Positions 11,053 to 13,454 of a DNA stretch of 32,000 nt are shown here, in pieces. The notes beneath the pieces are model-generated. The model did not search any database, was not told the origin of the DNA, and worked only from the letters and a program-made list of their open reading frames with translations. Location: positions 120,001-152,000 of the forward strand of contig NC_017459.1 in assembly GCF_000237865.1 (NCBI RefSeq). The letters are read 5' to 3'. Numbering within the stretch: position 1 is the stretch's first letter; every line of letters begins with the position of its first letter. Origin of the DNA: Haloquadratum walsbyi C23. GTDB lineage: Archaea; Halobacteriota; Halobacteria; Halobacteriales; Haloferacaceae. The position numbers were made by a program, and so were the translations under genes.

Positions 11053-12219
11053 CTATTCAACCGTTCGCTGATTAACCTCTGAAATAAAGTCACGCATAAA
11101 CTCTGACACTGTATTCCCCATCACGTAGATAGGATACTCATCAGCAAGACATACATTAAGAACATCTTCCGGAGCTGCTGATTCGGGATGATGGACGAAC
11201 TCGCAATCCACACGTCGCTCTAACAGCCTCGCATGTGAACCTGCAACATGAATCTGACCAATAAGCTCGTGTTTAGTGAGCCAGTTAAGATAATGCACGA
11301 AAGATGTCGTTCGACCAGCGCGGTCACGACGCGTGTAAATAAATGGTGTGATTGTGTCAGTGCTACTGTCAGTATCGCCATAGCGTTCGACAAGAAACTG
11401 TCTCAATAGCTCTGTAGATTCGATATCGTTCATCATTGCCCCATTTGCAATTATCCCTCCATCTTCGAGTCGCTGCCATCCCCATTCGGCGTGCAGGCGA
11501 TTGATATAAGACTCAATTTTCGCTGGTGGTAGCGGATCGAGATCAAGTGCACGGAGCGTTTCATCAACAATAAATGCCGATCGTGCGCCGAATACATCCT
11601 TATGCGGGTACTCTGGGCGCGGCGTGGCAACGAGAAATTCATTATTCGTCTTCTCGAACTCTTCTCGCAGATACTGGTTGATAGCCTCATTTCGGTCACC
11701 GCTGATTACACAAGCGCCTGCGGGGACAGTCCGAGTAAATACCCGAGCAATATCAGTGAGGTCAGTGCCTAGTGTTGATTGATGATCACGGCGGATATTA
11801 ATTATCAGAACAACCTGGGGTTTGAACAACTCATTCGCGAGCCGTGTCGTATGTTCTCGAATACCCTGATTTTCGGCAATAATAGCGTCAACAGGTGAAT
11901 ATTTTCGAAGTTCGCGCTCATTTTCATATAGACGCGTTGATCCACTTCGAGGAATCTTATATTGATTGAGATTTCGATATGAAAGCGGGTGATTGCCAGT
12001 AACTTTCGCATATGTTTCGAAGCCACGCGAGACAAGTGCCTGATTAAGCCACCGAACGACCGTTGATTTTCCACGTACACCAGAAACAGTCACGCGGTAT
12101 GGTGTTTGCTCAACTCGCTCAGAGTGTGAACGCCCACGACCAATGACATGCTGCATAGTCTTTGCAGAATTGGAGATTGTCTCTTGAAATCGAGAGAGAA
12201 TACCGTGTTGATCGCTCAT
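11053..12219 (-). CDS. pgsB: Poly-gamma-glutamate synthase ligase subunit, PgsB/CapB homologue (Mur-ligase fold). It has no N-terminal TM helix.
   Basis: The start is ATG and the product is 388 aa. The P-loop is VSGVRGKSTVVRWL. Other blocks are LIINIRRDHQSTLGTDLTDIARVF, NGAMMNDIEST, YTRRDRAGRT and VMGNT. As I recall Bacillus PgsB, these line up with INGIRGKSTVTRL, VIVNVLEDHMDVMGPTLDEIAEAF, NGFAANDASST, NCRADRVDRT and GVGNI. The ATG lies 2 nt after the stop of the upstream gene. Confidence 0.85.
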   Translation of the reverse strand: MSDQHGILSRFQETISNSAKTMQHVIGRGRSHSERVEQTPYRVTVSGVRGKSTVVRWLNQALVSRGFETYAKVTGNHPLSYRNLNQYKIPRSGSTRLYENERELRKYSPVDAIIAENQGIREHTTRLANELFKPQVVLIINIRRDHQSTLGTDLTDIARVFTRTVPAGACVISGDRNEAINQYLREEFEKTNNEFLVATPRPEYPHKDVFGARSAFIVDETLRALDLDPLPPAKIESYINRLHAEWGWQRLEDGGIIANGAMMNDIESTELLRQFLVERYGDTDSSTDTITPFIYTRRDRAGRTTSFVHYLNWLTKHELIGQIHVAGSHARLLERRVDCEFVHHPESAAPEDVLNVCLADEYPIYVMGNTVSEFMRDFISEVNQRTVE

Positions 12220-12221
12220 AT

Positions 12222-13454
12222 CTATTTATCCTCTTGATTATCAGCAGTTAGCGATGACTCATAAGATCCAATTCCATCAACTGAACTGCGAGCGAAAGCC
12301 GACTCGCTGGCGAATGCCGTCGCATCAGGAATTGATTGTTCAAGACGGTACATCTCAATTACTGCGAGTGCAACAATCATGATGCCAACAAAGATGTAGA
12401 AGACAAGATTGTCATGAAGTAGACCAGTAACTGGGATATCAATAAGGAAAAATAAGAGGGTATAACTGATCACGAACAATCCAGCATCAATCCGAATATG
12501 TGCAAGACGGGTTTTCCGTGACACCCGATTAAGATTATACGCACCAATCCCAACGAATATACCAGTGAAGAAGAGCGAAACCCCGGGAATGAGGACTAAC
12601 TGAGAGAAGAAAACTCCGAATATAAGACTGTAGATGGTGCCGAGGAGAATCGATACTGTGAGCAGAACCCGCCCATAAAAAAGTGTCATATATTGAATGT
12701 AAGTAATAAAGTAATAGATAATAGTTGCACCAAGAGTATAAAAAATAACGACAGAAGAAGACTGTACGGTGAATAACCCTAACGTGGGAATGATAACTAT
12801 TCCAACGAGGCGGTGATCGTATCGCTGTCGAAATCCCTCATAGATAAATATACTAATAGGAAGAATGATAAGAACAATCCAACCTGGAATAACTCTTGAG
12901 TGTGGGCTCCCGTGCGGTCTGAGCTCAATCCAAGCGGTGATATCACTTATCTGTAATGTGAGAAAAGGGGGCGTCTGGGTCACAAAAGTTGGGAAGAGCC
13001 AGAGTAAGAGTACCCCGACTGCTATGAGCGCGAGATAGCCACATCCAATGATGAGGAGTTCTGCACGGCGGTTTCCAGAACTTACTCGCATAAGATTGAA
13101 CGCTGTGATTCCCGGAAAGATACTGGTGATTGCCTCAGCAGTTTCAAAAGAGAGCTGATTCGGAAACACCTGCGAAAGAACAAATCCGGTCAATATTGTT
13201 GCGATTACACCAGTGCTAACGGCAGATAAAAACAGCCGACGACCATAATTAAGAGTATACTCTTGAAGTACCCACAATGAGATCCAAGCGGCTACCGTGC
13301 CAATAATAAATATCACCGGGGTGAAAAACTCACGAAGCGTATATATCGCGAGTATCGGGAGAACCATCACACCACCTAACCGGTAGCTCTTGAGCTGCGC
13401 AGCAAGAGCACCCAGCGTCAACCCAATAATCATAATGATACTGACAACAATCAA
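12222..13454 (-). CDS. pgsC: Polytopic membrane protein built from two tandem PgsC/CapC-like domains (a fused double PgsC).
   Basis: The 410-aa product is very hydrophobic. The motif pair YGRRLFLSAVSTGVI plus FPGITAFNLMRVSSGNRR (first half) recurs as YGRVLLTVSILLGTI plus FVGIGAYNLNRVSRKTR (second half). Both resemble Bacillus PgsC YGRRKFAAMLITGI / VPGLIANTIQRQG (from memory). The track start at 13454 is a TTG. The first ATG is at 13433 (aa 8), so the true start is uncertain by 7 codons. Confidence 0.75.
   Translation of the reverse strand: MIVVSIIMIIGLTLGALAAQLKSYRLGGVMVLPILAIYTLREFFTPVIFIIGTVAAWISLWVLQEYTLNYGRRLFLSAVSTGVIATILTGFVLSQVFPNQLSFETAEAITSIFPGITAFNLMRVSSGNRRAELLIIGCGYLALIAVGVLLLWLFPTFVTQTPPFLTLQISDITAWIELRPHGSPHSRVIPGWIVLIILPISIFIYEGFRQRYDHRLVGIVIIPTLGLFTVQSSSVVIFYTLGATIIYYFITYIQYMTLFYGRVLLTVSILLGTIYSLIFGVFFSQLVLIPGVSLFFTGIFVGIGAYNLNRVSRKTRLAHIRIDAGLFVISYTLLFFLIDIPVTGLLHDNLVFYIFVGIMIVALAVIEMYRLEQSIPDATAFASESAFARSSVDGIGSYESSLTADNQEDK

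Follow-up and report, generated by a model that had tools for sequence, protein, structure and literature searches.

Whether a haloarchaeon can make poly-gamma-glutamate (PGA) with a ligase and a single membrane protein, and without the PgsA/CapA component known from Bacillus, is the question raised by two adjacent genes of Haloquadratum walsbyi C23. Both lie within a stretch of 32,000 nucleotides (contig NC_017459.1, positions 120,001 to 152,000), which was analyzed as a whole and is referred to here as the window; coordinates are those of the window unless another locus is named. The genes, designated capCC and capB, are situated directly upstream of the halomucin gene hmu and on the same strand. 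As the preliminary description of this locus noted, a PGA capsule was proposed in the H. walsbyi genome paper, in which capC and capB were drawn beside the halomucin gene hmu1 and the capsule was attributed to CapBCA (Bolhuis et al., 2006). The identity and proposed role of the pair have therefore been public for two decades and are already in the databases. What is new here is an architectural variant of an annotated system, namely a class-wide capCC-capB cassette, a fused PgsC dimer, a soluble PgsB and context evidence for PGA. We consider it likely that capCC-capB encodes a PgsBC-type PGA synthase.

There is no structure or defined stoichiometry for any PGA synthase, and no experiment has yet assigned genes to archaeal L-PGA (Natrialba) or to the poly-gamma-glutamyl wall of Natronococcus; a class-wide cassette with a duplicated PgsC bears on both gaps. 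Archaeal PGA is reported to be 100% L, and Natrialba species are known L-PGA producers in the literature; the preliminary description had named Natrialba aegyptiaca as a producer of PGA. A published BLAST survey missed archaeal PgsC entirely and reported archaea as lacking it, and the open-access literature yielded no paper on a tandem duplication of archaeal CapC, on an anchorless CapB, or on linkage of the cassette to a PGA hydrolase or to CapA.

The capCC-capB gene pair

The first gene, capCC (12222..13454, minus strand), is an open reading frame (ORF) of 410 amino acids (aa) with a TTG start, and encodes a polytopic membrane protein with two fused CapC/PgsC repeats. The second, capB (11053..12219, minus strand), is an ORF of 388 aa for a PgsB-like, putatively ATP-dependent amide ligase with a predicted two-domain Mur-ligase fold. 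Both translations are exact matches to deposited H. walsbyi C23 proteins, CCC39081.2 ("CapC domain protein") and CCC39080.1 ("CapB domain protein"), respectively. Counting on from hmu (Hqrw_1107), the pair would be Hqrw_1108/1109. RefSeq places the start of capCC at an ATG seven codons inward, which gives a product of 403 aa named PgsC/CapC. An alignment of homologues shows that the 7-residue N-terminal extension from the TTG start is kept in other genera, and for this reason the 410-aa start is favored here.

The order of the genes is C then B. From the stop of capCC to the start of capB (junction 12217..12224, minus strand) the DNA reads aaaTAGATATGagc, that is, TAG-AT-ATG, so that the two codons are 2 nucleotides (nt) apart, as first described. 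The two genes overlap by 4 nt in most other haloarchaeal loci, which suggests translational coupling, and the pair is probably a bicistronic operon.

Given that H. walsbyi has many pseudogenes and a low coding density, that the neighboring hmu is poorly expressed in culture and that no expression data were found for capB or capC, the pair might be taken for a decaying or silent relic, or for genes whose function is unrelated to amino-acid polymerization. We regard this as barely credible, as both ORFs are intact and nearly identical on many saltern metagenome contigs, the catalytic motifs of CapB are invariant and the cassette is conserved class-wide (see below). In addition, comparison with the copies in Haloquadratum metagenome-assembled genomes (MAGs) gave ratios of nonsynonymous to synonymous substitution rates (dN/dS) of 0.18-0.20 for capCC and 0.09-0.15 for capB, and such values within Haloquadratum lineages indicate that both genes are under purifying selection.

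Two paralogous capB copies each were observed in the MAGs J07HQW1 (loci L015 and L017) and J07HQX50 (L016 and L018), with identities to the CapB of the window of 90% and 74% in J07HQW1 and of 81% and 74% in J07HQX50. A seeming lack of capCC 5' of the copy in L015 coincides with a scaffold gap of 50 Ns and is uninformative.

A duplicated membrane subunit

The 410-aa protein had been described as carrying the PgsC signature blocks twice, and profile searches bear this out. The Pfam family Caps_synth_CapC (PF14102) matches CapCC at 6e-30 in two non-overlapping stretches, with a score of 104.5 bits where the gathering threshold is 27, and the two halves of the protein align to each other with 31% identity (E = 8e-12). 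For either CapC repeat, a specific hidden Markov model (HMM), termed R1 or R2, was built from 29 homologues; these models locate the repeats at aa 1-157 and 187-345, and both also match the respective other repeat. Repeat 1 (12984..13454, minus strand) is matched by R1 with 228 bits and contains the motifs YRLGGVMVLP, YGRR and FPGITAFN; repeat 2 (12420..12896, minus strand) is matched by R2 with 210 bits and contains HRLVGIVIIP, YGRV and GIGAYN. The cross-match of R2 to repeat 1 amounts to 54 bits. Each repeat shows the three blocks of the CapC family, namely G..P, YGR and a third block (PG..A.N in repeat 1, G.G..YN in repeat 2), and these are conserved in the 29 homologues. Repeat 1 is the more canonical and is closer to bacterial PgsC, and repeat 2 is more divergent; with BLASTP, CapC of Bacillus anthracis aligns to aa 6-123 of CapCC with 25% identity.

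The AlphaFold2 (AF2) model of CapCC (predicted local distance difference test, pLDDT, 81) contains 13 long or short helices, with six helical elements per repeat. Those of repeat 1 span aa 2-22, 28-41, 45-67, 72-96, 113-122 and 126-156, and those of repeat 2 span aa 191-212, 218-231, 234-257, 262-283, 291-310 and 313-337. The 13th helix (aa 350-374 in the model) and the acidic C-terminal tail that follows it are encoded at 12225..12419 (minus strand) and are not present in the 149-aa bacterial CapC. The tail carries the motif LE.S.PD..AFA..S.FA, and residues R370, E372, P376, F381, A382, S385, F387 and A388 of this region are at least 90% conserved. Loops rich in Arg and Lys recur at equivalent positions in both repeats. 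A parallel arrangement of the repeats is predicted from this, in which the N-terminus would face outward and the C-terminal tail would be cytoplasmic. A Foldseek comparison of the CapCC model with the PDB returned noise only (TM-scores of 0.2 or less, to major facilitator superfamily transporters), so that no fold can be assigned, and no PgsB or PgsC entry was found in the PDB by sequence search with CapB and CapCC.

A ligase of the PgsB branch without a membrane anchor

Among the NCBIfam models, PgsB (TIGR04012) ranks first for CapB with 90.3 bits (1e-25), followed by FolC with 28 and MurD with 15 bits. In the reverse direction, an archaeal CapB HMM built from 40 homologues scores 135 bits against PgsB of Corynebacterium glyciniphilum, 100 bits against B. 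anthracis CapB and 87 bits against a Streptomyces PgsB, as opposed to 24 bits for Escherichia coli FolC and 14 bits or less for MurC-F. By these profile comparisons CapB belongs to the PgsB branch, if as a divergent member, and is not a FolC or Mur enzyme, in line with the initial assignment, and sequences from Halobacteria also fell in CapB in a phylogenomic and pangenomic study from 2025.

The similarity resides in the ATPase half of the protein (11626..12132, minus strand; aa 30-198), the sole part with sequence-level similarity to bacterial PgsB/CapB. Positions 19-189 of the 380 in TIGR04012 align solely to this region, B. anthracis CapB matches it with 25.7% identity (tblastn and BLASTP), and in tblastn searches against plasmids both B. 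anthracis capB and actinobacterial pgsB matched the N-terminal half of CapB with 25-29% identity. It contains the P-loop VSGVRGKST (aa 45-53, nt 12061-12087) and the motifs E116-N-Q-G and N141-x-R-x-D145-H146, and the residues G47, R49, G50, K51, S52, E116, N141, D145 and H146 are invariant in the 40 homologues.

For the C-terminal domain (11056..11625, minus strand; aa 199-388), no similarity to bacterial PgsB is detectable at the sequence level. A PDB sequence search with CapB gave weak Mur/FolC matches only. The AF2 model (pLDDT 86) nevertheless shows a two-domain Mur-ligase fold, and Foldseek aligned it over its full length, across approximately 400-430 columns, to FPGS/FolC, MurC and the pseudomurein ligase pMurE with TM-scores of 0.5-0.6. 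This full-length match to FolC and Mur structures suggests that the unalignable half is still a Mur-ligase C-terminal domain.

At the position of the transmembrane (TM) anchor of bacterial PgsB, CapB has a polar N-terminal helix (12109..12219, minus strand; aa 1-37), modeled at residues 4-37 with a pLDDT of about 60. No TM or other hydrophobic segment was detected in CapB, in which the highest Kyte-Doolittle mean over 19 residues is 1.03; the TM helix of B. anthracis CapB reaches 2.38. Seven further CapB proteins from haloarchaea are equally non-hydrophobic. Homology to the B. anthracis protein sets in immediately behind its TM helix, where RCHQKRL is aligned with RSHSERV. The soluble, polar N-terminus noted in the preliminary description was thus confirmed.

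Distribution of the cassette in Halobacteria

A scan of species-representative genomes, which was pattern-limited and did not bring up the H. walsbyi genome itself, returned 71 capB loci, all of which belong to Halobacteria bar one MAG labeled Crenarchaeota. A CapC-family gene is located directly 5' of capB on the same strand in 65 of the 71 loci, and both repeats are covered in 60. CapCC-CapB is accordingly encoded by a cassette that is conserved class-wide in Halobacteria, where CapB homologues are abundant; a pangenomic study from 2025 likewise reported CapB as widespread in this class. The genes around capCC-capB differ completely between genera, and the pair can therefore be viewed as a self-contained cassette. 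An exhaustive profile search with the double CapC gave only 168 clusters, with approximately 50-60 full-length doubles of 380-440 aa.

Among these relatives, a metagenomic double CapC of 862 aa (P0208) was considered as a CapCC-CapB fusion and rejected, its extra residues (about 490) containing no ligase; this C-terminal extension is acidic, Ser/Thr-rich and of low complexity. An actinobacterial origin of the high-GC doubles of 364-366 aa (P0307 and P0323) was also rejected, as the contig neighbors of P0323 are archaeal (TFIIB and haloarchaeal domains of unknown function).

The genes that adjoin the cassette in other genera are informative with respect to its product. A gene for a PghP-type PGA hydrolase adjoins it in eight of the 71 loci and in one Halostagnicola locus fetched separately. 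In six of the eight it is directly 3' of capB (Natronorubrum, Natronolimnohabitans, Halostagnicola, Natrialba and a Haloferacaceae MAG), and in the remaining two, both from Haloarculaceae, it lies 5' of the cassette on the opposite strand. All 10 members of this PghP-type family match PF05908, and their profile matches PDB entry 3a9l at 6e-12. In Halorubrum saccharovorum a glutamate dehydrogenase gene is found just 3' of capB. Together with the cassette-linked CapA genes considered in the next section, these hydrolase and dehydrogenase neighbors support a gamma-polyglutamate product. The cassette is also present in Natrialba magadii and Natrialba sp. SSL1. A small hydrophobic ORF resembling CapE was not found 5' of capCC in about 65 loci, in which only out-of-frame fragments of regulator genes clustered.

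Further variants were observed in the course of the scan. One is a block in which capCC and a long capB are accompanied by genes for a PAS sensor kinase and a response regulator; this block extends over up to about 9.3 kb (approximately 1800-11100 in locus coordinates) in L010, L046, L047, L048, L050, L053, L073 and L078 and is partly located on plasmids. The long form of capB in this block encodes 546 aa, with an N-terminal extension of about 150 aa. The block shares 90-97% nucleotide identity among Salarchaeum, Haloferax, Halopenitus, Haloarchaeobius, Halohasta, Salinibaculum and a Halorutilales genome, and this identity across genera suggests that a regulated module for PGA synthesis has recently spread by horizontal transfer. 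On an uncultured Halobacteriales contig (L083:3185-3892), a single-repeat CapC of 235 aa overlaps a CapB of 411 aa, an arrangement that may represent the state before the duplication. The MAG labeled Crenarchaeota (L084, 7968-8996 and 6112-7380) encodes a distant CapB-like ligase with 28% identity and no Pfam match, adjoined by a glutamate dehydrogenase gene; no CapC-family gene was detected at this locus.

Proposed mechanism and the possible role of CapA

In the mechanism that we propose for a PgsBC-type synthase, CapB would be a cytoplasmic, ATP-dependent amide ligase of the Mur/FolC fold, acting at the inner face of CapCC, where it would activate the gamma-carboxyl group and add L-glutamate to a gamma-linked chain. 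CapCC, with its roughly 13 helices and with two PgsC units joined in what is predicted to be one orientation, would serve as the obligatory membrane partner and as the probable exit path of the polymer. CapCC may also keep the anchorless CapB at the membrane, perhaps by way of the additional helix and the conserved, presumably cytoplasmic tail at its C-terminus, and the product would be released around the cell, next to halomucin.

The absence of CapA from the locus is central to this proposal. Pfam searches of the larger ORFs outside the halomucin gene detected no CapA, CapD/gamma-glutamyltransferase (GGT), CapE, PGA hydrolase or glutamate dehydrogenase in the window, and six-frame phmmer and hmmsearch runs over the whole window gave E-values above 0.3 for all of these. 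A pgsA gene is also absent from the operon itself, which is followed on its 3' side by some 415 nt of AT-rich spacer and then by a small ORF and hmu, both in the direction of capB, and is flanked on its 5' side by a divergent regulator gene. The statements of the preliminary description on CapA/PgsA and CapD in the 32 kb were hence upheld, and so was its expectation for the operon. In B. subtilis, PgsB and PgsC are both indispensable, while PgsA is dispensable under strong expression, and the polymer made without PgsA is 95% L-PGA (PMC6029982). By analogy with this result and with the all-L composition of archaeal PGA, the CapCC-CapB pair would probably be sufficient without CapA and would yield L-rich PGA.

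An alternative is that the canonical three-component CapBCA synthase proposed in 2006 operates in H. walsbyi, with an unlinked but obligatory CapA, so that the locus is only apparently PgsA-less. The gene table of the genome paper lists capA as HQ2849A, far from capB and capC (HQ1082A/HQ1083A) (Bolhuis et al., 2006), and "PgsA-less" thus holds for the locus but not necessarily for the genome. Earlier work on B. subtilis found PgsA to be necessary at lower expression, and a gene for a CapA/PGA_cap protein of about 700 aa, with a CarboxypepD_reg domain next to PGA_cap, abuts the cassette in four of the 71 loci. However, CapA does not occur within about 8 kb of the cassette in the other 67, in Natrialba taiwanensis and Halopiger the 700-aa CapA is encoded by a solitary gene, and PgsBC is enough in B. 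subtilis when it is well expressed. Operons of pgsBC that lack pgsA also occur in Streptomyces and Corynebacterium. A search with the cassette-linked Halorubrum CapA returned 80 relatives, none from Haloquadratum; although this search was word-based and absence is not proven by it, it suggests that HQ2849A is no close member of that subfamily. On balance we regard an obligatory CapA as unlikely.

The haloarchaeal CapA subfamily of about 700 aa has PGA_cap preceded by the N-terminal CarboxypepD_reg domain and followed by some 300 aa of C-terminal sequence (L068:4259-6316, L076:9122-11236, L086 and L088). Its gene usually stands alone and sometimes adjoins capCC-capB, and one bacterial relative occurs in Nocardioides.

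Apart from these points on CapA, several further observations weigh against a PgsBC-type PGA synthase. Both proteins score below the equivalog cutoffs of their families, CapCC with 24.1 bits against 96.45 for TIGR04011 and CapB with its 90.3 bits against 222.7 for TIGR04012, and in tblastn and BLASTP the similarity to PgsB is restricted to one half of CapB. The predicted parallel, N-out/C-in topology of CapCC is read from charged loop residues, and neither this topology nor the possible docking of CapB at the cytoplasmic tail is derived from coordinates. The PGA producers Natrialba aegyptiaca and Natronococcus occultus were not among the loci of our pattern-limited scan. Reviews, moreover, treat the H. 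walsbyi capsule as a genomic inference.

The pair might also make another gamma-glutamyl product, either a glycosylated, wall-bound, short poly-gamma-L-glutamate of the type of Natronococcus glutaminylglycan, or polyglutamate attached to an acceptor such as halomucin or the S-layer. A role of the CapB of Halobacteria in glutaminylglycan was suggested in the 2025 pangenomic study, the pair is directly upstream of hmu in H. walsbyi, and the C-terminal, substrate-side domain of CapB has diverged from bacterial PgsB past sequence recognition. The adjacency to halomucin is specific to Haloquadratum, however, as the same cassette occurs in unrelated contexts in other genera; hmu is set apart from capB by the spacer and the small ORF and differs greatly in G+C content; and the genes linked to the cassette elsewhere encode PGA hydrolase and CapA, not glycosyltransferases. 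We therefore hold such a product to be decidedly unlikely.

Within the framework of a PgsBC-type PGA synthase, it can be speculated that CapCC and CapB form a natural minimal system of two polypeptides for the synthesis and export of L-PGA, in which a PgsC dimer that is presumably non-covalent in Bacillus has been hard-wired and in which the anchoring function has moved to the 13th helix and tail encoded just ahead of the capB start. We put this forward as a tentative possibility. That CapCC has the extra helix and tail together with an anchorless CapB, as opposed to Corynebacterium, in which these extras are missing and PgsB has a hydrophobic N-terminus, suggests that the anchoring role may have been transferred to CapCC.

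Other genes in the window

Upstream of capCC, an AT-rich intergenic region of 612 nt (13455..14066, no strand assigned) separates the gene from a divergent regulator gene (14067-16616, plus strand) and is probably the promoter region of capCC-capB, as predicted from its sequence. The regulator gene encodes a protein of 849 aa with a HisKA_7TM-like seven-TM N-terminus followed by PAS, BAT and HTH_10 domains, and this protein is a candidate regulator of capCC-capB.

On the other side, the 5' part of hmu occupies positions 1-10278 (minus strand); about 3,426 codons are contained in the window, with the ATG at 10278 and a frame that is open from 10290 and runs off the window edge. Its G+C content is 0.57-0.63, compared with 0.40-0.51 in the rest of the window; for the open frame the value is 0.60, and elsewhere it is about 0.47. 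The small ORF between the spacer and hmu encodes 120 aa (10275-10637, minus strand), has no Pfam match and ends in a TGA that shares bases with the start codon of halomucin (ATGA). It might be a small gene whose translation is coupled to that of hmu. The same ORF is also called, as a gene of 118 aa, on independent saltern metagenome contigs. A protein of 542 aa (25215-26843, minus strand), in which a chlorite-dismutase-like domain is fused with an ABM monooxygenase domain, is unrelated to capCC-capB.

Implications for PGA synthesis

The covalent duplication of PgsC suggests that the working membrane unit of the synthase is a PgsC dimer, and the layout of the cassette shows that CapA is not an obligatory member of the operon. 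The pair also offers a simpler, two-protein system for reconstitution, for structural work and for the production of pure L-PGA. Should it indeed be a minimal two-polypeptide synthase, PgsC would act as a parallel dimer in all PGA synthases, a soluble PgsB with a single-chain membrane partner would be at hand for solving a first structure in this class of enzymes, and the genes long sought for archaeal PGA and for glutaminylglycan backbones would be identified. For H. walsbyi itself, these findings keep alive the idea of a polyglutamate layer beside halomucin at the limit of water activity.

Comparison with known systems

One close reference is the Bacillus PgsBCA(E)/CapBCA(DE) system, represented by ywsC-ywtABC of B. 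subtilis and capBCADE on pXO2 of B. anthracis. It also combines a Mur-type ligase with a CapC-family membrane protein encoded side by side, it shares the P-loop, the DH motif and the CapC motifs (G..P, YGR and PG/G..A.N) with H. walsbyi, and the predicted product is the same. The differences lie in the architecture. The gene order is C then B in H. walsbyi and B-C-A-E in Bacillus; CapCC is a tandem double with an additional helix and tail, whereas the CapC of B. anthracis has one Pfam stretch; the haloarchaeal CapB lacks the N-terminal TM helix, and its C-terminal half cannot be aligned to Bacillus PgsB by sequence; and capA, capD and capE are all absent from the H. walsbyi operon.

A similar reduction is found in actinobacteria. 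Plasmid pCgly1 of C. glyciniphilum encodes PgsB, a double PgsC of 334 aa with two Pfam CapC stretches and GGT, and a plasmid of Streptomyces sp. NBC_01454 encodes PgsB and a single PgsC; neither has pgsA. The fused-PgsC, PgsA-less layout that the preliminary description presented as an archaeal variant is present in H. walsbyi, but fused double PgsC proteins and pgsA-less operons are not exclusive to archaea, and in some haloarchaea CapA is encoded beside the cassette. In these actinobacterial operons the gene for a PGA-processing enzyme (GGT or NlpC/P60) lies 3' of the pair, like the PghP-like gene in Natrialbaceae. Unlike in haloarchaea, the order is B then C, PgsB is of the TIGR04012 type with a hydrophobic N-terminus, and the Corynebacterium double PgsC is without the 13th helix and the tail. 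The repeat HMMs score this double too weakly to show a duplication shared with archaeal CapCC, and given this divergence of the repeats, the two PgsC fusions may be independent.

With respect to fold, the best structural matches to the CapB model are FolC/FPGS, MurC-F and the archaeal pMurE, which share its two-domain organization, and FolC catalyzes gamma-glutamyl ligation as is proposed for CapB. The FolC and Mur enzymes are, however, soluble proteins whose acceptors are folate or UDP-MurNAc and which lack a membrane partner, and their scores of 24 bits or less with the archaeal HMM are set against 87-135 bits for PgsB.

A precedent for the proposed function is the PgsBC system of B. subtilis (Sawada et al., 2018; PMC6029982). 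It depends on engineered over-expression, its PgsB keeps the TM helix and its PgsC is a single unit, in all of which it differs from the haloarchaeal pair. Nevertheless, its two components synthesize and export L-rich PGA in the absence of PgsA, as is predicted for capCC-capB, and this product matches the all-L PGA of haloarchaea.

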